64,000 nucleotides of DNA, taken from positions 144,376,397 through 144,440,396 of the forward strand of contig CM097887.1 in the NCBI GenBank assembly GCA_044892525.1, in the 5' to 3' direction. Shown in pieces: positions 43,440-64,000 of this stretch. The notes beneath the pieces are model-generated. The model was given only the letters and a program-made list of their open reading frames with translations. It searched no databases and had not been told where the DNA came from. Both the position numbers and the translations under genes were made by a program. The DNA comes from Schmidtea polychroa. Lineage: Eukaryota. Each line of letters opens with the position of its first letter. The first letter of the stretch is position 1.

Positions 43440-44484
43440 TATTATTATTATTATAATTATTTTGATAATTTAATTTAATTTTGTTTAAATCAGATATTAT
43501 TTATTATTATGCAATAAATATAATATTAATTTATAAAAATTCTATAAAACGTGGAACCGTTGATACTTTTCGATTTTCATCAAGAAATAATATTCATTAA
43601 ATTCTATGTCATAATCAGAAATCTAAGGGGATTTGTGAAAACATCATTAATAATAAGAAATAGGAAGTCTTGTGTCAATGAAATAAATGCAGTGGTTGGT
43701 TTAGTTGATAAATGCTAGCGGAACCGAGTAGTCATTTTCCACATGCCTTGGTCGTCAAGTTGTTGCAAAATGCTCGTCCAAATCTAATCCGATGTGACAT
43801 GTTCCACATCGGTGAATGTGACAGAATCGTATTTGCAATATCACATATTCATTCTATACATTCGATTCTCGCTCGTACTTTCTGACAGTCAAGGAAACGA
43901 GAATTATTAAAATTATGCCTTTAAAAAAGACATTTTACCATTCACCATTCTGAGGAATTTCATTAAATTAAATTTCCTCTAAAATCTATAAAAATTTGTA
44001 ATTAATGTAAATTAATAAAAGGGGAATCTTCTAAAGACAATCATGAAAACGTTTTATAATAAAATATTTTATCCATTAATCTGAAATTTAAATGAACAAA
44101 ATATTCTTTGGTGACAATGATCTGCACTTTTGAACTTGGAAATATTTTATCAGGTCAAATGAGATCAGACAAATTAAAAATTATAATAAAAATATTTTTT
44201 GAATTTAAATTTTTAAATAATTTTTTAGAAAATGCTTACAATTATAAAGATGATGCTTGTTGTACAGTTTCATCCACGAGCAAACGATGCCGTTCGGCGT
44301 ACACGAATAATCAACTTGTGGAATTGGAAAAGGAATTTCATTACAATAATTATCTTGCAAGAGGAAGACGGACTGAATTATCGAAACAGTTACTCCTGAC
44401 AGAACGACAAGTCAAAATTTGGTTTCAAAATCGTCGTATGAAGCAAAAGAAAGAGAAAAAAGAAATTGAAAAATCACGAATTCA
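42069..44484 (+). CDS. Hox3-like homeobox gene (exon 1 from 42069 into a gap; exon 2 44229-44484; 3' end not seen)
   Basis: Exon 1 carries hexapeptide-like IYRWM; exon 2 follows a tttag acceptor and ends at a GTTAGT donor. Confidence 0.7.
43370..43455. repeat. (ATT)n microsatellite in the Hox intron
   Basis: Direct reading. Confidence 0.9.
44279..44458 (+). CDS. ANTP-class homeodomain, closest by eye to Hox3
   Basis: [60 protein letters not shown]; [13 protein letters not shown] is Hox3-like. Confidence 0.92.
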
Positions 44485-45619
44485 GTTAGTTGCCTTTATC
44501 TTTATTTTTATTTTGACATTGATATTGATTTTTAACAAAAATAAAACTATCAGTAAAATTTTTATTTTGAAAATGAAAATATAATTCTTACAAATTTGTT
44601 TATGCTTTCAAATACCAATATACTATTGCTATTTTGCTGTGAGATATAGGTCAAAGCCCCCCTAGAAATAGTAAGTCAATTTTATTTTTATACAATGGAA
44701 AAGAAATCATTGGTGANNNNNNNNNNNNNNNNNNNNNNNNNNNNNNNNNNNNNNNNNNNNNNNNNNNNNNNNNNNNNNNNNNNNNNNNNNNNNNNNNNNN
44801 NNNNNNNNNNNNNNNNNNNNNNNNNNNNNNNNNNNNNNNNNNNNNNNNNNNNNNNNNNNNNNNNNNNNNNNNNNNNNNNNNNNNNNNNNNNNNNNNNNNN
44901 NNNNNNNNNNNNNNNNNNNNNNNNNNNNNNNNNNNNNNNNNNNNNNNNNNNNNNNNNNNNNNNNNNNNNNNNNNNNNNNNNNNNNNNNNNNNNNNNNNTA
45001 TTTTAGTATAAACAGGCATATAACGAACCATTCAAATTCAGCAAAGAAGAAAAACTATTTCCTACCCATTCATATCCAAAGAAATACAATTTGTCATAGG
45101 CACGCGGAATTGAAATAAATTGCATCAAATTCATAAAATATTTCATTAATTGTATCTTATAATTTAAATATTTTAGATAACAGCAATGTTATCAAAATAA
45201 ATAGCAAAATGTTATCATTTATATTATAAAACACATTCAGAGGTAAAATTTTTAATTAAAAGTTCATTCAATTATAAATAAATAATAATTTAATAAAGAT
45301 ATATATTAAATAAGGTTTTATTAAAAAATATTCCGTGACAAACAAATTACAAATAAATTTAATAATCATAAACTTTATTTAAAATAATTAAAACTTTAAA
45401 TAGAAATGTATTTAGCACTCAAAGATTTAATAAAAATACAACCAATGATTAACAGTATAATCAGAGAAATAAAATATTTATATATTATTTATTAAATTAT
45501 ATTCTGACTCGTGTCTGTGTGCGCACACATTGTTCTTTTTGTTTGTTTGTGTGCTTCTTTTATGATATGTTCTGAAATTCGATCGATTTTCTTTTAATTA
45601 ATGCTTTGTGATCCCATTT

Positions 45620-47027: not shown

Positions 47028-50000
47028 TGTTGGGGTCACACCTCGGCTGACCATTCTACCATGTTGGCGGGTCTAAGGGTTGATTGTCCATCTCGAATAG
47101 AAGGTGCCACCGATTTGTCAACCTGGAGTGAAACCCCACATAACTTTCTTCCAACATAGTGCCCGTGAATCACTTCACGTTGGTACTGCACTATGCAGGC
47201 GAGACGCCAGCAAGCAGGTGAGCTTCTGCCTTAAAACTACTCCTTGCTGAGGCCTCGACTTCCCATTCACGACTGCCGATAGAAGGGCTTACGTCCATTT
47301 CCTTACACAACCACCTATCAGGATTCGCTGAATGCAAATTGGGAAATTCTCGCTAGATCTTGCGGGTCCTCTTCTCAACCCACTTAATTAAAGTCTAATT
47401 ATTCAGGAACGAAAACGTGTAAGACAACAAGATTTATTAATTTCAACGTTATGACACAAGGATTCAGCTGTACACTTTACTAATGTTTGTCGAAAGAAGA
47501 GAAGACATCATAATCAACATAGATCGGATCCTTGTTCCTCATCCTGACCGCCACTGGGGTTTTATTGTTTCTCCCATTCAGTGTCGGCGAATAATTCGTC
47601 GAGGTTGAAAAACTCGGAAGCGTTCTCTTCCCACCTTACGCCAGCGGCTGATATGATTCGCGCTGAGGGTCCCGTTGTTAGGTCGATGGACACGTGAGAG
47701 TTGCCACCGTTGGTTGAGTCCTCTATTGATGGGATGTTTGGCTTTGCAGTAGCGCGCTCGCGCTGTCTCTTCTTGCGCTCTGCACGAGAGAGTTGTTTGC
47801 GCTTGGGTTTGCTTGAAGATGCCCCTTGCAGAAGGGTGACTGATACAGATGGACTAGCAGTGGGGGGCTTACTGGTACCCGTGAGGACAACATCTGGACG
47901 CTTGGGGGACCATTCGGTTTCGACGCAGTCTCGGCACGGTCTCTTGAACGGTGGAGATGGATTCGAGGAAAGGTTGTGATGAGGCGGAAAGATGTCATCG
48001 GCCTCTCGGATGGGAATCTGCACGATTTTTCGGGTTGTAGCCGCCTGCACGTAAACCTTATGCAGTGCCTCGGATTGTTCTCTGATTAGACTTCTTTGGG
48101 CACGGCTCTCAGATATTAGCGCGTCCCGGCAATGCTCGCTACGATCGAGCTTCTTTTGGATCTCTTTCATCCGAGCGGGACTAAACCATGTCCCTTCCAG
48201 CTCGTCTATCTTCCTCTTGTAACGTCCAATCTGAGTTTGTAGGTCCTTTATCACCGTATTTTTATCCGCGCACGAGAAGCACGGCCGTAATGCTGATTTA
48301 GTGGTTGGTAGCATGCTTGCTATAAATAATACTAATGAAATGGAGAACATACGATTTTAGAATAAATTAGATACGACCCGCGTCCATTCGTGGATACTTG
48401 ACCGTCGAAAAGAAGGAAAACTTATTCTACAATCCGGTTTTACTACGGATCTTAGTTGTTAAAACAGTTTATTTAACCAAATGCCATCGGTTTGACGCAT
48501 GTTATTAACTTTGACTATCTATTGATCTAACTGTATGCATGAGGGACGTAATAATTGATAGGGTGTAAATATAATATTGGTGAAACAATATAATAATGCT
48601 TTAGTAGAGGGACATTATAGTATGCGACCAAACCTTGCTATATGTTATCTATTTTGATTTATTAAAAACAAATTACTATCGCTCTCAACATATTTTTGAT
48701 TCGAAATTTGTTATTGGAAGTGCACTTTTAATTCGGTAGTGAATGTGATTATCTATGTTGTCTACCATTGGTCTGAAAATATGTGATGAGTTTACCTCAG
48801 CCATTACTTTACCACCCTCATGGAAAATCCCATCGGTCATAACATATCCAAATTTACGGATACTGCTGTCGACTGGTTGATTACATTATCGACCTATTGT
48901 GAATGTCACGTGTCGCGACTACTATGTATGCTAGTCTGATATTCTGTGCTCTCACCACATGGATTCGTGTATGGCTACTATCTTATCTCACTCACTTGGT
49001 GTATGCCATTTTCACGGTGATTTTATCGATCCTGCTGTCGTATGATTTTCTCTGCACAGTGATTTATTTGAGTTATGATTTATGCTACCGCCAGTTCTCA
49101 TCGCGGAATTTTACCCTTATCAACTTGTGTGAATGATCACCATCGTTTGGAAATTTATTGGGTCTTTTCAGTGATCGTCGAGGGAATAATTCTACCAAAT
49201 ATTGGAGCATATTACTACTCTCGTCATTCTACTCGGATTTTCCTATTCAGATGTAATGCCGTCTCGATGAAACCTGTCCTTTTCTCTCAGGTTCAATAAT
49301 TTGGATATATACAGAGATGACCTGGCTCTTATTGTAGAAATAAATGTTATTAATTAAATTTGGTGATATTTTACCTGTTTATAATTTTTGAAATAACTAA
49401 GTCTATAAAAACTTTCTGATTATAATACTAGAGAGGTTTTCGTAGAATCTCGCATTTTATAGTTTCGAGTTAGTTAAAGTTTTTAGAATACTTTCGTAAC
49501 TTGACATACAATCTGGACAGGTTAGATGACATTGGGTCTATGATAACGGAATTTCATACGAATTTAGTTCTACTGAGTCCGGCAAATAGACGTTGTCGCA
49601 ATTAATTTGATAAAACCATGTTTCCAGATGAAGTGTACTATGAGATGTTGTTATTTTTGACGAAGTTCACTAAATCGTGGTCTGGATCTCTTTTTTCAAT
49701 AGGGGTAAGACTTACGAAAACGACTTGACGAAAGAAGAATGCGACGCCCTCAATCACTGTGCAAATCCTTGAAAATCCCTTCATTCGTATGACTATCTTT
49801 GTGAAATCATTGTCTACCGGTTATTTTTTATCCATACCCCATTGTGATAATTTAGTCGCATCTTCAGCGATAGGACCCGTGAAGAAGCCTTCACATTTCG
49901 GCCCAATCTAGCTGCGCGATTGAAATACCCCATGTCCACCGGCTGAGCTCCCGAAGGCACCTCATACCATGACATGGAGTATCTCAACTCCACGTTACTC

Positions 50001-50235
50001 GTTAAATGAAAATTCATAAAATCTTTAATTCAAATAAAATACGGACATCTGGATAAAAACATTTTATTGATTCTGAAATACTTAAATAATACAAATTCCA
50101 TCAATACGTTAAAGTTATTAAAATGGAGAATCAAATGAAGAGAGTTAAAAATGTTTAATCGTTAATATTTAACATTATTATTAGCTTTGCAAATACTTAA
50201 ATAAATCTATAAACAAATGAAATACCCCTTACTAT
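47028..50235 (-). mobile_element. LTR-like/GC-richer block: either the distal part of a 3.8-kb LTR or a separate older element
   Basis: Sharp compositional edge at 47028 (minus-strand end CCCCAACA); AATAAA on minus near 47435; contains ORF 47562-48350 and decayed coding-like sequence. Confidence 0.4.
47562..48350 (-). CDS. Unknown protein (about 250-262 aa): CxxC, coiled coil, Pro/Ser-rich region, basic NLS-like stretch
   Basis: Intact ORF followed by a poly(A) signal about 125 nt downstream; PCFSC, PCRDC, KPKRKQLSRAERKKRQRER. Confidence 0.5.
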   Translation of the reverse strand: MFSISLVLFIASMLPTTKSALRPCFSCADKNTVIKDLQTQIGRYKRKIDELEGTWFSPARMKEIQKKLDRSEHCRDALISESRAQRSLIREQSEALHKVYVQAATTRKIVQIPIREADDIFPPHHNLSSNPSPPFKRPCRDCVETEWSPKRPDVVLTGTSKPPTASPSVSVTLLQGASSSKPKRKQLSRAERKKRQRERATAKPNIPSIEDSTNGGNSHVSIDLTTGPSARIISAAGVRWEENASEFFNLDELFADTEWEKQ

Positions 50236-50864
50236 TGTTAGGCTGAGTCAAAATTCAATGTTGTTCGTTCCAAATAGTTCTAATGGTGGTCCGTTGGATG
50301 TCGATTATTGTGATGAATGGTATTTCGGTCTCTGAACTGGTTTTGAATAGTTGTGGAGTTTTCTGAATGACGGTTGCTTGGCTAGTAGTGTCGATCCTAT
50401 GAAATGCTCGGGGTTAACAGTAAAAACAGTAAACATTTTTCTTACCTATGAAATGCTCGGGGTTAACAGTAAATTTAATGTTTTTGGTAGTTGTATATAT
50501 ATCAAATTCTTATTTGTGCGGACCAATCAGAGTTGAGTACCGCTTATTTCTATTAATTTAATATAATTTTCTTGTTTTTAGGTTGTTTTTTCCTTATTTT
50601 CTTTATTTTTAATATGTTTTTCTATTTATTTCCTTAATTTCCTTATTATTTCTTGAATTCCTCTTTATTTATTTGTCCACTTGTTCTATTTTAATCTTTT
50701 CTTAATTTTATTTTTTGTTTTAATTCTTATGTCTTAATTATTATTTTCCTTATATCTTATTCTATTTTATTTCTGATTTTATTTATTTTATTATTATTTT
50801 TCTTAATGTTCTACTTCCCTACTTTCCTATTTTTCAACGATTAAATTTTCGACTCAGCCCAACA
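50236..50864 (-). repeat. Candidate 3' LTR (629 bp) of the giant element
   Basis: Minus strand TGTTGGGCTGAGTC...GACTCAGCCTAACA; about 30-bp imperfect inverted ends; CCAAT then TATATATA near 50500-50530; 29-bp direct repeat at 50396-50424 and 50445-50473. Confidence 0.55.
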
Positions 50865-51090: not shown

Positions 51091-51759
51091 TTATGAATTG
51101 TTAACCATTGATGCTTCTGCTGGCGGCTGTTGGTTGGTTTGGGTATTGATGTTGAGATAGGTCTGACTATTAGATTTCGGCTGGATTGGTTGATTACTCG
51201 GGGTTCGAGGTCGGAATGGGGTTGGGTTAAGATTTGTCAGGGGCACTTCTTGAGGATTTTGGTTCGAGGTTACTCTTATTGATGTCGAGATTCTACATCT
51301 ATTTCGAACTTCGTAAATTTTCATGAATATTGGTAGACATAGGAGGAGGGTTTCTGCGATCACCACATATATGAGATAATGGGCGTTATTGATTTCGGGA
51401 GGTATTTTTGGCTTTTCTACCAGATTTCCAAAATTCTCTTGTTGCATTTGTTGTTCCAACTGGTCGAATTGTTGAATTTGTTCGAGGATTTGTTTGTTTA
51501 TCATTTTACAAATGGGATTCTTTTTACACATTGTTTGGATGTTGTTGATGTGTGATCGGGTTGATTGAATGGTTTGGATGATATGGGTTTTTACGGTCAT
51601 CGGGTATGTGCATTGACTGGATTCTTGTTTAGGTTCTTGATTTTGATTTCGGTAATCTCGTACGATTTTCGGTTGGGCGTCTATTTGTTTGCTCTCCATC
51701 AGAATCATCAATACCATCATTGTTATCATCATCTCGCCTCGCATGATACTATTATACAT
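51091..51759 (-). CDS. Predicted type I membrane protein (signal peptide, 3-Cys ectodomain, TM, Pro/Gln/Asn-rich tail)
   Basis: MMITMMVLMILMESKQIDAQ; TM YLIYVVIAETLLLCLPIFM. Confidence 0.7.
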   Translation of the reverse strand: MYNSIMRGEMMITMMVLMILMESKQIDAQPKIVRDYRNQNQEPKQESSQCTYPMTVKTHIIQTIQSTRSHINNIQTMCKKNPICKMINKQILEQIQQFDQLEQQMQQENFGNLVEKPKIPPEINNAHYLIYVVIAETLLLCLPIFMKIYEVRNRCRISTSIRVTSNQNPQEVPLTNLNPTPFRPRTPSNQPIQPKSNSQTYLNINTQTNQQPPAEASMVNNS

Positions 51760-51799: not shown

Positions 51800-52552
51800 T
51801 TAATGGTTCTGATTTGGATTATTTTCGCCGATTCTCATCAAGGTGGACTCTGCTTTAATTACCCTGTGTCTTAACTCGGGCAGCATTTCCAATTGTCGGT
51901 CTTTTTCACGGGCTTCTCTCTTTAGATGTCTAATTTCTTTTTCTAAGCGTCTAATTTCTTCCCTTTTCTTTTCAAGGTTTCTTTTTAGCTCGATTTGTAG
52001 GAGATCTTGTTCGTTTTCTTGCAGGTAATTTTGTTGTTGATGTTTTCTTTCTATTTCTCTATATTTGCGGACCCACTTCCTCATTTCTTTACTTTCCCGT
52101 TGGTTTTCTTCTAGTTGTCGTTTTAATTTATTTATAGCTGTTTGGCGCTCCTCCGCCTCAGTTTTCCAGTAGTCTTGGATTACCTCCTTTGCTTTGAAGC
52201 TTGCCCTCTCTTTCCATAGTTCTTCCGCTATCTTTTCCCAGTTTTTCCCTCGCTTCCTTTGTTCGTGTAGCCATTCATTTTCCTCTTCCGTTTCTCTTTT
52301 TATTTCCCCCAACGCTTCGCACTCTTTCTTTAACACCTTTATCATTTTCCGGTCCTCTAGGTATTTGTTTATTAATCTCCCGTTTTCGTATTTCTCTTCC
52401 CGTAACTCGGCCTTTAGCGTTTGTGTTTCTGTTGTTTCTGCCTCAATCTCTCCCTCTTCTACGTCGCTCATAATTTCTATCATTTCCTCGATTTTCATAT
52501 CTATAATATGTACAGTTAATGGTGCGCTATAGTGCGACTTATACGTATACAT
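51800..52552 (-). CDS. Coiled-coil protein (250 aa)
   Basis: E/K/R/Q-rich heptad pattern over most of its length; intact. Confidence 0.7.
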   Translation of the reverse strand: MYTYKSHYSAPLTVHIIDMKIEEMIEIMSDVEEGEIEAETTETQTLKAELREEKYENGRLINKYLEDRKMIKVLKKECEALGEIKRETEEENEWLHEQRKRGKNWEKIAEELWKERASFKAKEVIQDYWKTEAEERQTAINKLKRQLEENQRESKEMRKWVRKYREIERKHQQQNYLQENEQDLLQIELKRNLEKKREEIRRLEKEIRHLKREAREKDRQLEMLPELRHRVIKAESTLMRIGENNPNQNH

Positions 52553-52676: not shown

Positions 52677-53786
52677 TTATACGAAGGTTTCCTCCTGGCC
52701 TACATAACCTTCATCACTATCGACCGCGGAATGTAACTGTATCGCAATAGGGTCGTATGGTAGGTAATATTGGGGAATTTGAGCTCTCAATTCACTAACT
52801 TCGTCTCTTAGAGCTCGAGTGATGTTCAATTCCTCGTCGAGCAGATAGGTGAGATACCTTGTCTCTTCATCTTTCGCCTCTATCTGTTTGTCTAGGGCCT
52901 TGATTTTCTCGTCGCCCTTCCATTTTTCAATTTCTATTTCTAAGTTTTTAATATTTTCGATGTACATTTTCCTTTCGTTTTCTAATTTTCTGTTTTTTCC
53001 CGCTAGGACCATGTTTCTTTGTTCCAGCGATCCTTGTAATCCATTAAGGTCTCTTTTCATCTCTTCTACCTGATTTACTAATTCCACAACCCGTCCCGCT
53101 TGTTGGGTTATCATCTCTTCCATTGCGGCATTCTCGTGCTCTCTTATGTCGCACTTCATTGCCAAATGTCGCTCAAACTCCATAGCCTTTGTTTGCCAGG
53201 TTTGGCTTCGGGCGGCGACCTTTCTCAACCTTTTCAATTCTTCCTTTATTATTAAATTCTCCTCCCATTTACCTTGTTCGCTTTCATATCCGAGTCTCAT
53301 GGGCAATTCTTTCATCTCTTTTTTCATTTCTCTGTTTTGTCTTTTCCATTTTCTCGCTTCTGCCACTAAGTGCATCATTTTCCTGTCTTCTATTTGTTTT
53401 TCCGCTTCGCGCTTGGTGTTCTCATCGGTAAGTCTTTTTCTCGCTTCCTGCACTAGCTGCTTTAAGTAGTGGCTGTGTGCTTCTTGGCGGGTATTTTCTA
53501 GTGACGCCCATTTTGATGCTCTTTTGCATGCTTCTGCTTCCGCTCTTAAGTTGTGTATTAACCATTGGTATTGACTATTCTCATCTTCTCTAGTTTCTTC
53601 GATGTGATTTCGGGTGAGATTAGTTAGTTGGAACATTACTTTGTTCCATTTTTTATTATGTTCTCGGGGAATTTGTGTCTTGTTGACATTGGTTGGGGCT
53701 ATCGCAGTTTCGGTTATTTTCTCTTGTGTCATCTCTAAATCATAGACATCGATTAATCTTTTTATTATGAAAAGGAATTTATTCAT
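52677..53786 (-). CDS. Long coiled-coil protein (369 aa)
   Basis: Extended heptads with a non-coiled C-terminal tail; intact. Confidence 0.75.
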   Translation of the reverse strand: MNKFLFIIKRLIDVYDLEMTQEKITETAIAPTNVNKTQIPREHNKKWNKVMFQLTNLTRNHIEETREDENSQYQWLIHNLRAEAEACKRASKWASLENTRQEAHSHYLKQLVQEARKRLTDENTKREAEKQIEDRKMMHLVAEARKWKRQNREMKKEMKELPMRLGYESEQGKWEENLIIKEELKRLRKVAARSQTWQTKAMEFERHLAMKCDIREHENAAMEEMITQQAGRVVELVNQVEEMKRDLNGLQGSLEQRNMVLAGKNRKLENERKMYIENIKNLEIEIEKWKGDEKIKALDKQIEAKDEETRYLTYLLDEELNITRALRDEVSELRAQIPQYYLPYDPIAIQLHSAVDSDEGYVGQEETFV

Positions 53787-53924
53787 TATTTACTGTTTCT
53801 TGGGAAATTTTCGCATCATTTTTGGGTTTTCGTATTTAGGGTTTTCATACTATTATTATATAATATTTTATTGGTTATATACACCGATATATACAGATTA
53901 TTATATACAACATTATTCGATTGG

Positions 53925-55313
53925 TTACTCCGTTCTACCCTTCTCCTCTTTCCTCACGGTCATCTTGATATATATGGTATCATTTCTCGCCATATCTTCT
54001 ACTCTTTGTTGTGAGATGAACGTAGGTGCTCCTGTTGCTGATCCTTCTTCGTTGAGGGGCCTCTGGTAAGCTATTTGATTCCCCGTTGTTTTGAAGCTTT
54101 GCTCATGTATACTTTGGTTGTTCATCAGAGTAATATCGATTTTTGCCTGGAACGGCCATTCTAATATTTCGTCGTATTCTCCTTTACATAACAGAAAGAA
54201 AATCGAAAAGTGCGTATCCAATCCGGTTCCGTCCCCGTTGGGATATACCTTCATTTTCATTTTGTACCCATTTTTCCAAGAATGGAATGTAGGACTTGTT
54301 ATTCTTGTCTCTTCTCCGGTTTTTGCTTTTCGTATTCTTTCTTTTACTCCCGTTATTTTCCATATGTAGGGTGCTGTTGGGGTTATCTCATTTAGATTTA
54401 TTTCCCGTATTTTCTGATGTAGCTCCTTGGCCTGATTATTACTGATTTCTGTTCGGTTTATTTGCATCTTTATGTTTGCTCGGGCTTCTTCGAACGCTTC
54501 CCTTTCTTCTAGTAGTTCTTTGACTAACACTTTCAACGATGTTATCTCTATCTCCATTTGTTTTACTTTCTCTTCGCTTTCTTGTAGCGCAGTCGACCAC
54601 ATTTCTGCGTGAGTTGAAGCATTTTCTACTAAATGATGTGGTAACTCACCTCGGTGTAGTAGTTTCTGACAACCCCATCTACCTAGTACACATGTCATTC
54701 TTTTCTTTTCGCATTCCCTTAGATGCTGTGCCACCTTCATTATTTCCCCTTGGTTACATCCGTTTGGGCATTCCCCACTGAACTCCGCACATACTCTCTC
54801 CTCTTGGACATTGTGATGTTTGAGGGTGAGATTTATCCACGTATCTATTTCTCCACAGTGTTCACATCTTTCTAATCTCTCTTCACACTGCTTTTGATGT
54901 TCTTTTTCTTCGCTTGCTCGAATGGTTTTATGGCACCTTTCACACTGGCCAATTCTGTACATACATTCTCCCATATGTTGTACTACCTTCCATATTACTC
55001 CTTTCCATTCGCATGGGGCATTTTTGCATCCCAGGTTGGTGTTTAACATGTCTTTCACTGCGGCTTTATCCTCGTTAGTGTCTTCTAAACTCGATATTAG
55101 TGTCTCTTTACACACCGGGCACCTCTGTGGTCTATTCTTTATTGCTTCACTGATACATTCTTTACATACTCTGCATCCACATTGCGTTTGGTGAGGTTCC
55201 TTTAACAACTTTTCACATATTCCGCACATAACATGTTTGTGTATTCTGATCGTTGTAGATTTTCGGACTTGCTCGACAATCTCTCTGAACTCTTCTCTTT
55301 GTCGTTTATCCAT
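53925..55313 (-). CDS. Intronless TRAF-family protein (RING, zf-TRAF repeats, coiled coil, MATH)
   Basis: CGIC...CGCRVCKEC...CPVC; CKNAPCEWKG..HMGEC; YIWKI, SPTF...GYKMKMKVYPNGDGTGLDTHFSIFF, GEYDEILEWPF. Confidence 0.93.
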   Translation of the reverse strand: MDKRQREEFREIVEQVRKSTTIRIHKHVMCGICEKLLKEPHQTQCGCRVCKECISEAIKNRPQRCPVCKETLISSLEDTNEDKAAVKDMLNTNLGCKNAPCEWKGVIWKVVQHMGECMYRIGQCERCHKTIRASEEKEHQKQCEERLERCEHCGEIDTWINLTLKHHNVQEERVCAEFSGECPNGCNQGEIMKVAQHLRECEKKRMTCVLGRWGCQKLLHRGELPHHLVENASTHAEMWSTALQESEEKVKQMEIEITSLKVLVKELLEEREAFEEARANIKMQINRTEISNNQAKELHQKIREINLNEITPTAPYIWKITGVKERIRKAKTGEETRITSPTFHSWKNGYKMKMKVYPNGDGTGLDTHFSIFFLLCKGEYDEILEWPFQAKIDITLMNNQSIHEQSFKTTGNQIAYQRPLNEEGSATGAPTFISQQRVEDMARNDTIYIKMTVRKEEKGRTE

Positions 55314-55398
55314 TCTATAATTATATGTACAAATAGTTCTTATCGATACAGGTTCGATATTTTATTTACAATTATTTACATTTTAAGCTAGGTTTGGT

Positions 55399-55782
55399 TT
55401 AGGGTTCGGAAGAGTCGGCTTCGTGCCCGCTCTCCTCTCTATTCATTAGCCATTCCGACCAGTCTTCCATTTCTGTCTGTTCTGCTTCCTCCCTCATTCG
55501 GTCTATTTCAATTTCCTGTCGACGGCTATATTGGGTTATCCTCTCTATCTCTCTTTGCATTTGTTCGATTTTTAACCTCTGGTCTTCAATTATCTTCAAA
55601 TAACTAAATCCTCTGTTCATACTCTCGATCAGGTTTCTGTGCATCGTCAGTCCTTGTTCTTGCAGATTGGACACTAATTGTGCTAATACGGCACATTGTT
55701 GCTTCCATAATTCTTCAGTTACTGTATTGTGGTTCATTTCGTTATTTCCTTGATCCATTCCTAATTTATATACACTTTTCAA
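55399..55782 (-). CDS. Small coiled-coil protein (about 120 aa)
   Basis: Intact ORF between the polyprotein and TRAF; heptad pattern and acidic tail. Confidence 0.6.
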   Translation of the reverse strand: MKSVYKLGMDQGNNEMNHNTVTEELWKQQCAVLAQLVSNLQEQGLTMHRNLIESMNRGFSYLKIIEDQRLKIEQMQREIERITQYSRRQEIEIDRMREEAEQTEMEDWSEWLMNREESGHEADSSEP

Positions 55783-55918
55783 CTCTTATGTAAATTTAAT
55801 TTTATTTTATGATTCCCGTTATTGTATAATATTGATACCGCGCTTATATAGAGATATAGTACTGTTATATACATAAGATATACTTACTTTTTACAATTAT
55901 ATACAGTCATATTCCTTT

Positions 55919-58900
55919 CTATATACGTGAGTTTGGAGGGCGCTGAACGTTCCAGGCCTCCACCCACTGTCCTTGTTTGATATCACTTGGTCGTTTCACT
56001 CGATGTTGGAAGTTTCTGATTCGGGTCATTTCTAGTTCTCCGCGATGTCGTTTATCTTTAATTATTTTTATTGTTCCCCCCGTTATGATTAGGAATGCCC
56101 CTGTTATTATTATCCCACTGATCCACATCATCTGCTTCACGCTTATACTCTCTGGTTTTTCCTTGTTTGTTAATGTTGATATCGCTTCTGTACTTTTCTC
56201 GTTTCCTCTTTTGCCATTTCCTTTCATCATTTCCCGTATTCTTGCTATTTCCTCGTTCATACCCTCCTTTGCCATCTTTTGTATTTTTTCCATCTCTTCC
56301 TCCGAAACATAGTTGTCCTGAGCTTCCTCACCAGTTTTCTTGTGCTTTCCTCCTTCGTTCTTTTCGTCGTGGTTTTTTCTTTTCTTTCCTCTTTTCCCCG
56401 GGTATCGTCGGCATTCTCTTTTTGATTCAATCCTCCAGATACAAACCGTGTATTCTTTCGGCGGCTGCTGCTGCGTCACATATTGATGGCATCTCTCACC
56501 TGGTCCTAATCTTGAAATACAGACTTTGTGCTCTTTTCTAGGTTGGATCTGCGTTATTACTACTTCACCACCTTTTCCTAGGTGTACCTCTTTTCCTTTG
56601 ACGTTCGTTATTCTCTTCCCGTCTCGATTTCGGTATGCTTCTTGTATTCTTACTTCTGTTATTGGTTCTGTGTCCTCATTTATCAGTACTAGTTTCTGAT
56701 ACGCTCTAGACATGCATCTTCCTAGTATGCACCTTTCCTTTAAGTCCCATTCTTCCTTTAAATCCCACTGCTGCTCTTGTGCTTGCTTTCTCTTTTCTTG
56801 TTTTAGTTCATCCTCTTTGCTATCTTGATTCTCCGCTTCTTTGGTTTCTTTTATCGTTCTCGTCCCTCCCTGAGCTGTTACTAACTCTATCATGGTAAGC
56901 ATAATTATCATTAATATCATATTTGTCTCTATTTCTTTGTTAGTGAAAGGTAGGCATACCCTCTGTTTTCCATTATTCGATTTTTCCTCCTCTTTGGTCT
57001 TGGTTCTCGGGCTGTTTCCCTCTCTTTTCGTATCCGAATCCTTGTTTTCTGGTTTACCCTCCTCCGGTTCTCTTTTCTCTTTATCCTCCTTTCGGTCTTT
57101 TCCGTTATTGTCATCGTGTTTATCTCCCTCGCTGTCATTTAAAATGTCGTCCTCGACATTTATATCGTTCAATAATCTGCGATATGCTGTTAGCACTCTG
57201 TTTCTTGCTAATTTTGCTTCGAATTCAAACTCTTTTCTACCCGTTGCAGCATGTCTCTTTCTATTCCATTCTTTAACTAACTCTCTCAATTGCATACGAC
57301 GATGTTTGCCAATTCGTTGTTGCTCGTTCTGATTTTGCGTGAATTTTAGGTCTTCTCTATTTAATACTATTAAAATAATTTTAGGCGTCCCCCCCTTAGT
57401 TAGGGTATTCTTTACCATCGCATTTTCTCCGTTTTCGTAGAATTCGTTTACATTTATCGCATATTTATTATTTGGTGGTACTCTCCAGGTTAATAATAAT
57501 TTCATTGCTTCTAGATTTTTCCGTACCGTATTCCATTGAAACTGAGATGTGTTTTTGCACATATTTTCAACTTCTTCTTCTGTCGCATTTTTGCAAATAA
57601 ATCTGATCATTTCTAAGTTTGGCTGTATGGTTGCCCAGTCCAAGGTGGAATTTCCTTCATTGGACCTTTCGTCTAGTTTCGATCCTGATTGATGTAGGAT
57701 GTGGAGTGTTTTTGGGTGTATTTTCGTTATAGCTGCATACATCATGGCGGTTTCACCTTGTTCATTTTTCGTGTTGGTTTCCTCGCCCATCTCCCCAAGG
57801 ATTCTCATGATCGTTATTGCTCTATTCTCTTTTGCAGCTAGTATTGCTTGTTGTAGGGGTGTTCGGGAATCCTTCGTTACCATCGTAAATGCTCGAGGCA
57901 AGAAGGTTTTGATTTTCCCGATATCTAAACCCGTGGTTTGATCTCTTGCGTATGTGTGTACGGCTTTTATTATTTTGGACAATATTATTTCGTCTGGCAG
58001 CTCTAGCATTTCCTCAAAGAACACTTCTTTTGCTTTGCGTATTATTGCCTCTTGATCTATACTCATTGATTTGGTTTCGATGACGTTGTTTGTGACCGTT
58101 CGGTTCGTTGTTGACTTTGATTCCCTGGATTTCTCATACCTTATTTTCGTTTTCTTTCCGTTTGGATTATTGATTCGTTCCTCTGCTGTAAGTATTTGGA
58201 TAATATCCATGTAATTCTCGCGGATGTTATTCATCGTGTCCATCATATATAACACACTTACTGTTTCCCAATATTTATGTCGTACTTGGTTAGTAAATTG
58301 GAATAGTGATTTTTCGAATGTGTCGATTCGCTTTTTTGTTAACTGTTCGTCTTTGTGATTTGTGAATTTTATCCCTCGTTCTAGTAATTGATTCGGGATT
58401 TCGAATAAATGATGTCCTTTCATAGCTTCTCTCATCAGCGTGTTCTCCCCTCTCGTGAACGCTTCGTTTACGTTGATCATATAATCGTTTCGAATTGGAT
58501 TTCTCCATGTAATTAATATTCCGGTAATTGTCGTCAGTTTTTCTTTGATCGCTGTTAGCAATCCATCATACATGTTTCCGACTTCCCGATTGTCCTCATA
58601 TGATAGTAGTTCCATCAATGACGTGAACGCCTCGGTACTTCTCCCTCTGATAGCATGATGTAGAGCGTTTTTCCGCTCGTGGTCTTGTGTAGTTATTTTC
58701 GATCCGGTATCGAGTAATGCGGTTATAATGTCTTTTGTTTTGCCTCTGTTTGCGGCTATCATTAATGGTGTGTAACCTTGGTTGTTTGTTTGTTCTGTTG
58801 ATCGCTTGCAGTCGTGAAATGCTTCTATTGTTTCTAGTATTTGCTCGTTGTTACCTACTTTCATGAGTTTGTGTAATGGTGTGTCTCCGTAATGATCTGT

Positions 58901-61900
58901 TATTGTAAATAATATTGGCCATTGGCTTTTGACTACTCGCAATAATGGGTGTGTCCTTTCTCTATTTGCATAGTTCTCGATCATCGTCAATAATCCTCCT
59001 AATATTTCGAAATCTAATCGATCTTTCGCCCATCCAGGTATTTTAATTTTTACCTCTTTTACAATCTTTTCCGCTTCTGATGGTTGGATACCTAATCGTC
59101 CAGTGATCGGTTCTGCGAGTTGTTGCATCATGTTCATTCGGTAGGTTTGCGAACGTGTGGTTAATGTACGGCCTTCTGGTTGACTAGTGGCTGTTTTTGG
59201 AATTGATTTGCATCGTGCCACGTTTACGTATATTGGTCTGGTAAAGGGGTTATTTACCAATTTCACTCTTACATTAGTTTCGCCTACGAATAAGATCTCA
59301 TATGGTCCTTTTCCGTTGCGTTGTAACTTTTTTGTGGTTCCTGGAATTAATTCCGGGGTTTCTATCATTACCCAATCCCCTGTTTGGAACGTATGTTGCT
59401 TCACGTTTTTCTTTCGATCGTGTAAATCTTTATAACTTTCCTGGTAGAACTTGATATTTAATCCCGCAGTTTCCCAAATTTCTTGCATTCTTTCCTTGAA
59501 TTTCGTAACATAATCATCGATCTCCATATACTGCGATATCGGTGGTTGGTATTCCAGGTCCATTGGCATATTACATTCTCTTCCGTACATTAATTTGAAT
59601 GGGCTCATTTTCGTTGATGCGTGAATCGACATTCTGTACGCCATAAGACATAGGTTTATATATTCGTCCCAATCTCGTTGGTGACGGTCAACGTAGTTTG
59701 ATAACATTTGTATAAGTGTTCCATTAAATCTTTCCGTCATCCCATTGGTTTGAGGGTGGTATGGAGATGTTCTTAGTTTTGCTATTTTGAAGTAATTTGT
59801 TACTTCGCTCATTATCTCACTCATAAAATTTGTTCCCTGATCGGTTAAGATTTGTTTTGGTGTTCCATATCGGCAACATATCTCTTCTACCAAAATTTTT
59901 GCGATTGTTTTAGCTTTTTGGTCTGGCATCGCGAATGCTTCTGGGAATTTCGTAAGAAAGTCTGTGATCACTAGAATGTAAACGTTTCCTTTATCTGACT
60001 CTGGTAGTGGACCAACTACGTCCATGGATATCATTGTCATTGGTTCTATTGGTACTGGCATTGGCGTTAAAGGTGCTTTCCATTTCGATCCCGTATTCTT
60101 CCTGGTTGCACAAGTTAGACAATTTTTTACCCATTCGGTTACATCTTCCGTTAACGTAGGCCAAAAATATTTCTGTTTCATTCTTGCTAACGTCTTTTTC
60201 GATGACATATGTCCTCCCAATCTCCCATCGTGATATTGCGTTAGTAACTCTTTTCGTCGGTTTTCCGGTATACACATTAATCGTTTTTCCCCATCCATTA
60301 TCAGCAACCAATCTTTCTCTATAATATATCGGTGTCGGTGTTTATCCATATGTTCTTTTAATTTTTGGTCTTTCGCATATACATCTGTCTGTCCGGTTTT
60401 TATATAATCGATAATTTGTTTTAATTCCGCGTCCTCTTGTTGGTCCTTTCGCAATTGACAGAAATCCAAATCTTCCGCTACTATTAAGCATATGCGTTGC
60501 ATTTCTGAATCCACCAAATCTGGGAAAATAAATCTTGACATACAATCGGCGTTGGCATTTGCTCTTCCCGCTTTAAATTTTATAAATGGGGAGTATTCTT
60601 GCAATTGCATGGCCCATCTCATCAGTCTACTGGACGCTTCTTTATGTTGCCCTAACCACACTAATGGTTGATGGTCTGTGGTTATGCATATCTCATGTCC
60701 CCATAGTAAATATCGGAAGTGTTTGATAGCTTGTATTATAGCCAATGCTTCTCGTTCTGTTACCGAATAGTTCTTTTCGTGCTTTTTGAATGTTCGACTG
60801 TAATACCCGATTACTCTCTCTTTTCCCTCATCGTCCAATTGTCCCAGAATCGCGCCTGCCGCGTACCCGCTTGCATCCGTTGCCAATAGAAATGGCTTCT
60901 TAAAATCTGGGTGTACGAGGATAGGTGCTTCGATTAGTTTGTCTCTCAGCGTTTCAAACGCCTCTTGTTGTTCCTTCCCCCATAAGAACGAAATGTCCTT
61001 CTTTACTAGTTCCTGGATTGGTTTTGCAATTCCTGCATAATTTTTGATAAATTTGCGATAGTATCCGCATAATCCTAGAAATTCCTGAACTTGGGTGACA
61101 GTTTTCGGTGCTGGACATAGTTTTATTTTCTCAATGTTTCTTGGATCTGGCTCCTTTCCTTTAGCTGACACTATGTGTCCTAAAAACGTGACTTTTTCCT
61201 TTGCCCAATCGCATTTTGATGGTTTGAGTTTGAGTTTCCACTGTCTTAATCTAATAAATACGTTTCGGATATCTTCTAGATGTTGTTCAAATGTCGCTGA
61301 ATAGATTAGTAAATCATCAATATATACCATACATTGTTTGATTCCATGGGTGACAAAGTTCATACACCGTTGAAATGATGCTGGTGCGTTAGTCAGTCCA
61401 AATGGCATTTTCCTGAATTGATATAGATCTCGTCCCAACGTGAAAGCTGTTTTCTCTTTGTCCTCATCTTTGACTTTAATCTGCCAGTATCCACTTTTTA
61501 GATCTAAAGAAGTAAAATATGCTGCCCCTTGCAACATCAATAACATCTCATTGATGTCTGGCAATGGATAGGTATCTCTCTTGGTCACTGCGTTTAACTT
61601 CCGATAATCGATACAGAATCGTTGGGTGCCATCTTTCTTTTTCACCATGACCACTGGGAATTGCCAGGGTGAGCAACTTGGTTCGATTACTTTTGCGTCT
61701 AGCATCTTTTGTACTTCTGTTTCGGCTATTTCTTTCTGCATTTCTGCTAGCTTGTATGGTCTCAATGCAATTGGAGTTTCATCTATGAGGGGTATTGCAT
61801 GTAGGGTAACATCGCATGTACCCAAGTCTAAGTCTGAGATGGCGAATATATCTTTATATTCTACCAACAATCGGTGTAATTTTTTCTTTTCATCATTCGT

Positions 61901-64000
61901 CAACAACATACTATCTATTGTCCATAATTCATCATCTTTGATCATCTCGTTGGTCACTTTCGGTAATTCTATGTCCATCATTGGGGTCAATCTTCCCAAT
62001 TTTTCGTTCTCATAAATGATTTTGTCTTCCTCTTCGAAATTCGTGATGTTGAGCGGTATCACTCCTTCTTGGTTTATTGTGATTATTTCTCTTGCGAGTG
62101 GTAATTCTCGTCGCTTTTCGAATGACTTGCTTGGTTCAAAGATAACTTCTCCTTCCATACCCGTATCCACTTTTATCTGACAAATCATCTGCGATTTTGC
62201 TGGTACTATTATTTTTTCTGGACATCTGATGACTGCATTCATTTTGCATATTCTACCGGTTTTGTCTTTTAAACACATAGTTGTTAAGTCTATTACGACT
62301 TCTTTTAATAATTCTGGCATCAGGTCCGTTCCGATTATGCATGGTACGCTAAGTTTTGGTATTACTGCCAAATACGTTTCAATTTCGTTGTCCTGGTATC
62401 TCAATGTAGTCCACCATCTTCCGACCACGTCCACTGTTTCTTTACTACATGCTATGATGTGAATTGTTGTTGATTCGATATCCTTCCAGTGTTTACTGGG
62501 GATTTGATTAATCGCTATCGCTGATACATTAGCTCCGGTGTCTATCATAGCATTGGTTTCTTTACCATTGATTTGAATCATAACTGTTACTGCTGGACCT
62601 CCAGGTAAACTCATCGCTGCTATTGTTCTTACGTCATCTGCTTGATCTACACTTTTGGTACGTCGTGTTGGCATATAATGCATACCGGGTTGACTCGGTA
62701 ATTGCGGATACATATTTTGTGTCATGGTCAAAGCTGTTTGTGGTCCCACGATATCCGGTGGTATATAGCTTCCATTGGCGATCCAGGTGTTTGTCTTTTC
62801 CTTTTCCCAATATGGTGCCGTTTCCATTGGTTTTTCGTTTGGGTTTCTGTTTGGATAAAGACATTTATCGTTCCCGTTATCATCGTCGTCACTATCGCTG
62901 TTAGATGATTGGCTTCTAAATCGGTCCAAGAATTTTGGCTTATTCTTTTTCAATTGTCGTCTTGTTGCTTCATCGTACATTACTTTCCGGAATCGTCTGC
63001 CTACTTCCTCGTCGGTTCCTTTAATCTTTGTTAATATTTTAATCAATCGCTTTATCCGATGAATGTCTTTTGAGTGGCCATGTAATACCATGGTCTTAGC
63101 TAAAAATGGTAAGAAGCCTACTATCATTTTCCAATTAACTTTCTTTTCCCGCTTGTATATATCGAAACAAGCTAACATTTGTGTTAGTATTACTCTGACT
63201 ATCTGAATTATGAGTATGATCCCTAATATCCCGGCCATCATTTGTCCAAAAACTAAGAATCTTCCCCACATTGCTTTCATCATGTTTGACGTAGCTTGTT
63301 GAAAATGGTCTGGCGATAATAGCAGCTCGTAATTCGGGCCTGATTGATAGTTTGTGCCCCCAGTTATTGTTACCATATTAGACAAAATGGATTCTCGTCT
63401 GGCTGGGAAGAGTACGTTAAGTCGTGCTGTTTCTAGATCTTCTGGGGAATACATACCACCGTTTGACACGTCTATAGGTTTGAAATCCAGCTCTGTGGCG
63501 AGTTCTATTAATCCAAATTTCTTGGGCTCCTCGGATATGGTTTTTCCCGGTAACATCATCCATTTCCCATCGGGCCTTTCATATAAAGGTCCGTATGCAT
63601 TAGAACAGTTAAAGAGATTTGGGTAGAAACCCACTGGATTCATAATTCTAGTGACTGGTTGGACGAATCGATTTTGTCCTTTATAACGGATTTCTAATTC
63701 ATTTGCACATCTCTTTTCGGGTAGTATGGATTTTTCTGGCATTCGTGCATACGTCTTGGTACACTGGTATGTGTACATCACTTCTCCTACCATTCTACCA
63801 AAGTGTCCATCTGGTAATGGGAGTGATGGCATCGTGTTATCTGGGTGCGTTATCGCAATAGCTAGCTTTGTTTTCAATATTTCTTTATTCAATGAACAAT
63901 CGTTTTGTATTAGATCGTAATATACTTTTTGCAAGGTCGTTTGTCCGCGATGAAATAGAAAATCCATTTTATTATTTGCATATAAGTATAGTTTTACGTC
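55919..64000 (-). CDS. Polyprotein: gB/chuvirus-like glycoprotein C-half, TM, PR, RT, RNase H, IN, two ankyrin modules, membrane-anchored tail (5' end beyond window)
   Basis: Frame is open from 64000 (DVKLYLYANNK-MDFL...). TM about 63185-63260; DTG 62534-62542; YIDD about 61314-61325; TDAS/TDHQPL; HHCC, MDVVGP (60020), TDQG, TERFN; GPY about 59300; TPL ankyrin motifs 58888-57630. Confidence 0.95.
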   Translation of the reverse strand, partial: DVKLYLYANNKMDFLFHRGQTTLQKVYYDLIQNDCSLNKEILKTKLAIAITHPDNTMPSLPLPDGHFGRMVGEVMYTYQCTKTYARMPEKSILPEKRCANELEIRYKGQNRFVQPVTRIMNPVGFYPNLFNCSNAYGPLYERPDGKWMMLPGKTISEEPKKFGLIELATELDFKPIDVSNGGMYSPEDLETARLNVLFPARRESILSNMVTITGGTNYQSGPNYELLLSPDHFQQATSNMMKAMWGRFLVFGQMMAGILGIILIIQIVRVILTQMLACFDIYKREKKVNWKMIVGFLPFLAKTMVLHGHSKDIHRIKRLIKILTKIKGTDEEVGRRFRKVMYDEATRRQLKKNKPKFLDRFRSQSSNSDSDDDDNGNDKCLYPNRNPNEKPMETAPYWEKEKTNTWIANGSYIPPDIVGPQTALTMTQNMYPQLPSQPGMHYMPTRRTKSVDQADDVRTIAAMSLPGGPAVTVMIQINGKETNAMIDTGANVSAIAINQIPSKHWKDIESTTIHIIACSKETVDVVGRWWTTLRYQDNEIETYLAVIPKLSVPCIIGTDLMPELLKEVVIDLTTMCLKDKTGRICKMNAVIRCPEKIIVPAKSQMICQIKVDTGMEGEVIFEPSKSFEKRRELPLAREIITINQEGVIPLNITNFEEEDKIIYENEKLGRLTPMMDIELPKVTNEMIKDDELWTIDSMLLTNDEKKKLHRLLVEYKDIFAISDLDLGTCDVTLHAIPLIDETPIALRPYKLAEMQKEIAETEVQKMLDAKVIEPSCSPWQFPVVMVKKKDGTQRFCIDYRKLNAVTKRDTYPLPDINEMLLMLQGAAYFTSLDLKSGYWQIKVKDEDKEKTAFTLGRDLYQFRKMPFGLTNAPASFQRCMNFVTHGIKQCMVYIDDLLIYSATFEQHLEDIRNVFIRLRQWKLKLKPSKCDWAKEKVTFLGHIVSAKGKEPDPRNIEKIKLCPAPKTVTQVQEFLGLCGYYRKFIKNYAGIAKPIQELVKKDISFLWGKEQQEAFETLRDKLIEAPILVHPDFKKPFLLATDASGYAAGAILGQLDDEGKERVIGYYSRTFKKHEKNYSVTEREALAIIQAIKHFRYLLWGHEICITTDHQPLVWLGQHKEASSRLMRWAMQLQEYSPFIKFKAGRANANADCMSRFIFPDLVDSEMQRICLIVAEDLDFCQLRKDQQEDAELKQIIDYIKTGQTDVYAKDQKLKEHMDKHRHRYIIEKDWLLIMDGEKRLMCIPENRRKELLTQYHDGRLGGHMSSKKTLARMKQKYFWPTLTEDVTEWVKNCLTCATRKNTGSKWKAPLTPMPVPIEPMTMISMDVVGPLPESDKGNVYILVITDFLTKFPEAFAMPDQKAKTIAKILVEEICCRYGTPKQILTDQGTNFMSEIMSEVTNYFKIAKLRTSPYHPQTNGMTERFNGTLIQMLSNYVDRHQRDWDEYINLCLMAYRMSIHASTKMSPFKLMYGRECNMPMDLEYQPPISQYMEIDDYVTKFKERMQEIWETAGLNIKFYQESYKDLHDRKKNVKQHTFQTGDWVMIETPELIPGTTKKLQRNGKGPYEILFVGETNVRVKLVNNPFTRPIYVNVARCKSIPKTATSQPEGRTLTTRSQTYRMNMMQQLAEPITGRLGIQPSEAEKIVKEVKIKIPGWAKDRLDFEILGGLLTMIENYANRERTHPLLRVVKSQWPILFTITDHYGDTPLHKLMKVGNNEQILETIEAFHDCKRSTEQTNNQGYTPLMIAANRGKTKDIITALLDTGSKITTQDHERKNALHHAIRGRSTEAFTSLMELLSYEDNREVGNMYDGLLTAIKEKLTTITGILITWRNPIRNDYMINVNEAFTRGENTLMREAMKGHHLFEIPNQLLERGIKFTNHKDEQLTKKRIDTFEKSLFQFTNQVRHKYWETVSVLYMMDTMNNIRENYMDIIQILTAEERINNPNGKKTKIRYEKSRESKSTTNRTVTNNVIETKSMSIDQEAIIRKAKEVFFEEMLELPDEIILSKIIKAVHTYARDQTTGLDIGKIKTFLPRAFTMVTKDSRTPLQQAILAAKENRAITIMRILGEMGEETNTKNEQGETAMMYAAITKIHPKTLHILHQSGSKLDERSNEGNSTLDWATIQPNLEMIRFICKNATEEEVENMCKNTSQFQWNTVRKNLEAMKLLLTWRVPPNNKYAINVNEFYENGENAMVKNTLTKGGTPKIILIVLNREDLKFTQNQNEQQRIGKHRRMQLRELVKEWNRKRHAATGRKEFEFEAKLARNRVLTAYRRLLNDINVEDDILNDSEGDKHDDNNGKDRKEDKEKREPEEGKPENKDSDTKREGNSPRTKTKEEEKSNNGKQRVCLPFTNKEIETNMILMIIMLTMIELVTAQGGTRTIKETKEAENQDSKEDELKQEKRKQAQEQQWDLKEEWDLKERCILGRCMSRAYQKLVLINEDTEPITEVRIQEAYRNRDGKRITNVKGKEVHLGKGGEVVITQIQPRKEHKVCISRLGPGERCHQYVTQQQPPKEYTVCIWRIESKRECRRYPGKRGKKRKNHDEKNEGGKHKKTGEEAQDNYVSEEEMEKIQKMAKEGMNEEIARIREMMKGNGKRGNEKSTEAISTLTNKEKPESISVKQMMWISGIIITGAFLIITGGTIKIIKDKRHRGELEMTRIRNFQHRVKRPSDIKQGQWVEAWNVQRPPNSRI

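Follow-up and report, generated by a model that had tools for sequence, protein, structure and literature searches.

The TRAF gene found in the window, i.e. the whole stretch of 64,000 nucleotides of Schmidtea polychroa DNA analysed here, is real and selected cargo of a known group of elements, the planarian Burro elements, and represents a more complete form of their published cargo at a different position. Beyond this, we propose as a moderately probable reading that the gene, which is complete, enclosed by the LTRs of a gypsy element of the Burro type and under purifying selection, was likely captured once long ago, is likely expressed from a processed mRNA of its own and likely rewires host death and immune signalling for survival. 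This cargo reading is based on the position of the gene, its spread among copies, selection on its four domains, its codon composition, the occurrence of a TRAF at this slot in another family, and the motifs of the surrounding spacers.

A complete TRAF gene within a Burro-type element

The TRAF open reading frame (ORF) is located at positions 53925..55313 on the minus strand and encodes 462 aa in one frame, from ATG to TAA. It comprises a RING domain with a CGC signature (aa 30-68), five zinc fingers (approximately aa 96-231), a coiled coil (aa 232-306) and a MATH domain (aa 316-453), which confirms the complete TRAF gene suggested by a preliminary description of the window. In Pfam searches the MATH domain (PF21355, E 2e-27) and the RING (E 1e-4) were detected and zf-TRAF did not reach the cut-off of E 0.01; the several zf-TRAF units that had been described are nevertheless borne out by an alignment of 20 host and other TRAFs, in which five C-x-C-x-H-x-C/H fingers can be counted. 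The AF2 model of the protein (mean pLDDT 87, pTM 0.44) contains a single long helix at aa 232-306, i.e. a coiled coil (TRAF-N) preceding the MATH domain, and retrieved TRAF1/2/3 domains with Foldseek (E 3e-18). In a sequence search of the PDB, TRAF3, 2 and 1 were the best matches, and the RING and fingers matched TRAF5/6. The protein thus shares domain order and five fingers with TRAF2/3/5-type adaptors. Its RING has eight zinc ligands and reads CGC where most TRAFs read CGH. Some residues of the receptor groove are unlike those of human TRAF2, whose roles we presume here. A search for protein homologues gave 0 matches at E 1e-10 among 3813 candidates, which marks a limit of sensitivity, and 6223 matches when relaxed to E 0.001; among ten of these that were looked up, the three with names were TRAFs of the triclad Dendrocoelum lacteum, as would be expected for a planarian host.

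The element that carries the gene is young, measures 30,007 bp and has two 3837-bp LTRs with one difference, TG..CA ends and a 4-bp target-site duplication. The 3837-bp 3' LTR (47028..50864, minus strand) has a CA end followed by the 4-bp duplication, and the 5' LTR is located 9.2-13.0 kb past the window end. The same layout was found in 4/4 other copies examined, each with its own target duplication. The polyprotein of about 4617 aa is divided by the window edge, at which both halves are open: its C-terminal 2693 aa (55919..64000, minus strand) cover the second half of Env, PR, RT, RNase H, IN and ankyrins, and the 1924 aa past the window end cover Gag and the first half of Env. Pfam searches of both halves identified gag, zinc knuckles, a viral fusion glycoprotein, PR, RT, RNase H, IN and ankyrins; in the family of the window, Env lies in frame between gag and pol and the ankyrins follow the integrase.

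Five accessory ORFs, all on the minus strand, are located downstream of pol, with the TRAF gene being the second. A 119-aa ORF (55399..55758), which has a homologue in the same slot of a second family, lies between pol and TRAF; beyond TRAF follow a 369-aa ORF (52677..53786; probably a coiled coil, dN/dS approximately 0.10), a 250-aa ORF (51800..52552; probably a coiled coil) and a 222-aa ORF (51091..51759) with two hydrophobic stretches and no Pfam match. The LTR itself contains a 262-aa ORF (47562..48350, minus strand), for which no Pfam family and, in an Atlas search, no match at 0.9 was obtained; relatives occur in the LTRs of other elements with 45-81% identity over parts. Past the window end, between the 5' LTR and gag, a 161-aa ORF with an IAP-type RING is encoded on the minus strand (L011:8370-8855). 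Its ATG is preceded by an acceptor with a clear pyrimidine tract, and the ORF has an AATAAA and a T-rich tract of its own; a homologue is present in the second family. The leader before gag harbors a tandem array with a 74-bp period, the length of which varies among copies (L011:7080-7782).

With its size of about 30 kb, its long LTRs and one gag-env-PR-RT-RH-IN-ankyrin polyprotein, the element resembles Burro/GYPSM1, a type of giant gypsy-like LTR element known from planarians (Jurka 2007; Grohme 2018; as cited in the Burro passages of PMC6431247). According to the same passages, Burro carries MATH_TRAF_C and BIR cargo, with MATH_TRAF_C being part of ORF1 in S. mediterranea and of an accessory ORF located upstream in D. 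tigrina, and a manipulation of host apoptosis and ubiquitination has been proposed. Unlike the Burro elements of these passages, for which a MATH_TRAF_C domain only is described, the element of the window has a full RING-zinc finger-coil-MATH gene downstream of pol, for which selection has been measured here, and spacers with Pumilio-type motifs. A MATH domain inside ORF1 and a BIR, as in Burro1, were not detected in the window's family; Pfam found neither a BIR in this family nor a MATH within its polyprotein. BCL2-like, SUMO-like and dUTPase-like motifs, some of which were found by HHpred according to the Burro passages of PMC6431247, gave no Pfam match at E 0.01-0.05. Among the papers covered here in search of a complete TRAF gene or of Pumilio sites in these elements, PMC6431247 alone links TRAF to Burro, and the maps of Burro-2, -3 and -4 in Grohme 2018 may already show the ORF.

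A search of the genome with the MATH domain (1551 candidates, 150 scored) uncovered a second Burro family, which is the Burro1-like one. It has a MATH domain inside its 4791-aa frame, between Gag and Env, and a full TRAF gene in the same post-pol slot, which is 29% identical to that of the window and is followed by a BIR-RING IAP gene of 392 aa (L063:2227-3405, contig C4). The latter is absent from this slot in the window's family.

Spread of the TRAF gene and selection on its coding sequence

A DNA search with the TRAF gene gave 363 candidates, and 40/40 of those scored were full length with 99-100% identity; in the protein search, all 92 scored matches were full length at ≥95%, and 91/92 were free of stops. 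We also analysed 40 copies chosen by RT alone, i.e. independently of TRAF. By their coordinates, 25/40 could be paired with a TRAF DNA match (matched by hand, three at a shifted distance), and the remaining 15, which were fetched, contained TRAF in full length in 13 cases, with a 43-bp deletion in one and cut at 503 nt in one. TRAF DNA is therefore present in 40/40 of the RT-picked copies. It had been suggested that the gene is carried as retroelement cargo, and this status is supported by the spread in 40/40 copies together with a position inside the LTRs in 5/5 delimited copies. Three equal-scoring pairs of TRAF matches are located about 26.2 kb apart (C2:177699304/177725516; C4:46256274/46282455; C4:69865757/69892041), which is the period expected for two elements with one LTR in common.

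Selection was estimated from 35 sequences, i.e. the window and 34/35 fetched copies, after dropping the cut copy. Variants shared among these TRAFs were synonymous in 83 and non-synonymous in 56 cases, corresponding to a ratio of 0.16, and mean dN/dS was 0.15 for TRAF, 0.05 for RT-RH and 0.03 for IN, noting that 20 of the 35 sequences stem from a protein ranking that favours low dN. An old TRAF copy, found via a host query, showed a dN of 0.084 at a dS of 0.79 (ratio 0.11), with each domain at 0.09-0.13; these per-domain values at such a dS indicate purifying selection on all four TRAF domains. Furthermore, the eight RING ligands are invariant across the 35 element TRAFs. One pair of copies of the second family gave a dN/dS of 0.08 for TRAF and 0.18 for the BIR-RING IAP gene. 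From these results we conclude that the element TRAF is under purifying selection for function.

The codon composition of the gene is that of its element. At third codon positions, A and T amount to 0.45 and 0.16 in the TRAF ORF and to 0.45 and 0.17 in the polyprotein, unlike in six host TRAFs (A 0.31-0.38, T 0.30-0.44), so that the element-like, A-rich codon bias noted earlier could be verified.

Relationship between element and host TRAFs

Two features that had been put forward as signs of the element origin turned out to be shared with the host. A Cys at the His position of the RING is present in 9/9 single-frame host TRAFs with a matched RING and in all 17 RING exons matched across 22 array loci, compared to only 17/90 matched library proteins. 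Likewise, several host TRAFs extend from RING to MATH in one frame (454-487 aa) without a surrounding element; in three of them no ATG occurs early in the frame, and a short first exon is probable. Neither the Cys RING nor one-frame coding therefore marks an element copy, and both a His-to-Cys exchange as an adaptation of the element and intron loss as proof of a capture via RNA are ruled out. While the CGC RING is common to both, the element TRAF is unlike host TRAFs in being mobile, high-copy, about 30% identical to any of them and written in the codon usage of the element.

In full-length trees, the two element TRAFs are sisters (96 SH-aLRT; 85/94 under the mixture model), a grouping that is unstarred and unites two long branches of odd composition, and nest among CGC-RING TRAFs that include those of the host and of Dendrocoelum (94/97). 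The MATH-only tree does not join them, and a single clade of the three element MATH domains was not rejected (p 0.65). Taken together, these phylogenies suggest that the TRAF was likely acquired in one old capture from the planarian lineage's own TRAFs.

The preliminary description further suggested that part of any apparent expansion of host TRAFs may consist of element copies, an expansion of planarian TRAF-like genes being reported in PMC6109357 and PMC7586133, as far as covered here. For S. mediterranea, 99-282 MATH transcripts have been published, and TRAF mRNAs are reported as targets of piRNAs in PMC6824462. This is correct for locus counts and incorrect for diversity. First-look candidate numbers for the element-borne MATH types, which are not copy numbers, were 363, 393 and 296 (sum 1052), and element MATH loci appear to exceed host loci about tenfold, though in only three sequence types. 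With a host MATH query, 90 matches ranked above the first polyprotein-borne match; five of these are old copies of the window's family, which leaves about 85 diverged host-type matches, inspected in part, 72 of them on contig C2. On this contig, at approximately 1-5 Mb and 105-124 Mb (L038-L059), host RING-plus-MATH genes occur in clusters, in two frames and with shortened zinc-finger regions. Twenty-one MATH domains of the array are 36-98% identical and form a branch of their own with one further host gene (100/99). The array TRAFs resemble the host in composition, are not accompanied by element genes and, in the one case examined, contain a GT-AG intron. We conclude that elements dominate the locus count and that the host, with its about 85 diverse matches, holds the TRAF/MATH diversity, i.e. 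a real host expansion. For planarians this is a caution, as hundreds of element copies are pooled with a genuine host family both in counts of TRAFs and in multi-mapping reads.

Two other explanations have to be considered in the light of these data. The TRAF ORF might be a neutral passenger that is intact only through the youth of its copies, many of which are indeed 99% identical, but the ratio of 0.11 at a dS of 0.79 and the fact that the second family carries its TRAF at the equivalent position, despite an identity of only 29%, argue against this; we count it as refuted by the dN/dS results and regard it as extremely improbable. It is also conceivable, though quite improbable, that the element TRAF seeded the host expansion or that the reported planarian expansion mostly reflects mis-counted element copies. 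In line with this, the element-borne candidates make up 1052 as compared to 1551 for the whole MATH family, and an AU test does not reject the array as sister to element MATH domains (p 0.38, 0.54). However, the number of host-type matches, their concentration on contig C2, the diversity and separate branch of the array domains and the host character of the array genes contradict both versions, and a tree in which the window TRAF branches from inside the array was rejected (AU, p 0.037). In addition, the portions of PMC6109357 and PMC7586133 covered here do not link the expansion to transposons, the string 'transpos' occurring 0 times in PMC7586133.

Pumilio-type motifs in the spacers between accessory genes

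The presence of Pumilio-type motifs in the accessory-gene spacers is, judging from sequence, the new observation of this study. In 11 such spacers of the two families (1214 nt), the motif TGTAHATA occurs 16 times on the sense strand, compared to 1.1 expected from dinucleotide shuffles, and 0 times on the antisense strand; the sense-strand count in the polyprotein of the window's family is 0. The motif is present in 8/11 spacers, often in pairs or triplets, with the first site 13-22 nt behind the stop, and an open scan returned its form, with position five free, as the top gapped 8-mer (17 vs 0.4). Three motifs are located directly before an acceptor instead of behind a stop.

Behind the TRAF stop (53867..53909, minus strand), three copies of TGTATATA (53902-53909, 53888-53895 and 53876-53883) are followed by an AATAAA (53867-53872). 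The 85-nt spacer before TRAF (55314..55398, minus strand) contains two copies of TGTAAATA (55373-55380, 55363-55370), which overlap an AATAAA, and one TGTACATA (55324-55331), and a splice-acceptor-like TAG is located one base before the TRAF ATG. Three TGTATATA motifs are found in the spacer after the pol stop (55759..55918, minus strand). The motifs appear to be preserved: variation in at least two copies affects 3/80 motif positions compared to 83/481 other spacer positions (p 0.001), and all three sites that follow the TRAF stop persist in 6/6 copies, including the copy with a dS of 0.8, while the far half of the spacer has drifted. At one site, C and T are exchanged among copies at the free fifth position. 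At the ends of host TRAFs, TGTAHATA was found in 0/9 and 0/11 cases (0/20).

A PUF gene of the host is encoded in the genome, and the three pieces read contain the motifs SRQ, NYQ, CRQ, NYQ, SNE and NYQ, which we take to be the canonical PUF code. The spacer motifs match the PUF/Pumilio binding element UGUANAUA in exact consensus, in sense orientation only and mostly 13-22 nt behind stops, and thus likely represent candidate Pumilio binding sites; unlike known PUF elements, these putative sites reside in the intergenic spacers of a retroelement cassette. The binding element is described in the portion of PMC5855632 covered here, which also reports that planarian Pumilio is essential for neoblasts. 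A generic CFIm-type UGUA was rejected as the source of the motif, since UGUA upstream of poly(A) signals is reported as lacking in planarian 3' ends in the pertinent part of PMC5068929.

Regarding mRNA starts, a YAG within 4 nt of the first ATG precedes 9/13 accessory ORFs of the two families, compared to 162/1215 sense ATGs (p 6e-6) and, in AT-rich context, 17/92 (p 9e-5), whereby homologous ORFs of the two families are non-independent in this count. In 4/4 older copies, AAG takes the place of the YAG before the 119-aa ORF, and the TRAF ORF of one old copy begins with GTG. For AATAAA, the spacers showed no enrichment (p 0.16). Contigs of two sequencing runs, which are possibly RNA and may be DNA, align across the TRAF region, in most cases with 90-95% identity, and none of the seven joints listed in them is located on an acceptor.

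Proposed role of the TRAF cargo

Based on these features, the accessory genes would give rise to separate mRNAs, which would end at the AATAAA of a spacer and start at the acceptor-like AG before the ATG. Binding of Pumilio to TGTAHATA behind the stops may hold down the accessory proteins in stem cells, a block that would be lifted in differentiated cells. The element TRAF would trimerise via its coiled coil and MATH domain and either occupy the tails of receptors and adaptors or join host TRAF trimers; its trimerisation, receptor-tail binding and E3 ligase activity are predicted from the domains. Together with the IAP-type RING of the element, it could shift ubiquitin signalling towards survival, so that the protein would enter host TRAF-IAP signalling and favour the survival of element-expressing cells. 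A manipulation of host death and immune signalling, as had been suggested for the element, may hence be the function of this gene. The lack of a Pfam BIR in the window's family and the receptor-groove residues partly unlike human TRAF2 count against this proposal, as do the AAG and GTG of older copies, the missing enrichment of AATAAA and the three motifs located before an acceptor. According to the relevant part of PMC8532177, BURRO1 RNA is enriched in the intestine and BURRO1 RNAi did not relieve the smedwi-2 phenotype, a test that did not address TRAF-based cell survival.

Both the target of the TRAF and the reader of the motifs could be different. The protein might serve the particle cycle instead of host signalling, by scaffolding or ubiquitinating Gag, Env or membrane proteins of the element during assembly, trafficking or budding; the element does encode a viral-type fusion glycoprotein, and the MATH domain fused into the polyprotein of the second family between Gag and Env places such a domain in a particle precursor. 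We nevertheless consider this unlikely, because the company of the gene, namely the adjoining IAP gene in the second family, the IAP-type RING ORFs in both families and the BCL2-like and BIR motifs reported for Burro (Burro passages of PMC6431247), points to apoptosis control. Somewhat less unlikely, but still doubtful, is that the spacer motifs act in DNA, as TATA-like or forkhead internal promoters, or as an element-specific 3'-end signal, with each accessory gene being a transcription unit of its own and without Pumilio. Several motifs overlap AATAAA, TGTATATAA includes a TATA-like string, and TGTAAATA fits what we presume to be the forkhead consensus (14 vs 7.1 expected, p 0.014). However, an enrichment of TATA was rejected (TATAWAW 11 vs 8.9 expected), GTAAACA is absent, all three variants are covered by the PUF consensus only, and the C/T exchange concerns the position left free by that consensus.

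Returning to the survival reading and the Pumilio-type sites, we tentatively suggest, as a possibility short of an even chance, that Burro carries captured survival genes (TRAF, IAP) in a virus-like cassette, with separately processed mRNAs and Pumilio-tagged ends. Pumilio would then gate the cargo according to cell type, or would itself be soaked up by the RNA of the element. If true, a retrotransposon would be tied into two systems of a regenerating animal, its TRAF-IAP death pathway and the post-transcriptional programme of its stem cells. The review remark that Burro tinkers with apoptosis and ubiquitination is thereby turned into testable objects, i.e. a selected full-length TRAF and 8-nt motifs with a candidate reader, and a specific knockdown is possible given the identity of only about 30% to host TRAFs.

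Elsewhere in the window, a separate gypsy element of small size, about 3.75 kb (20805-24558, minus strand), shows disrupted gag-pol frames and direct repeats of 133 bp (98%). At 33413-33883 (plus strand), a C2H2-like finger was recognised by eye in one frame. A Hox-like homeodomain exon of the host (44117-44584, plus strand; Pfam E 1e-21) is located about 2.4 kb from the 3' end of the Burro-type element.
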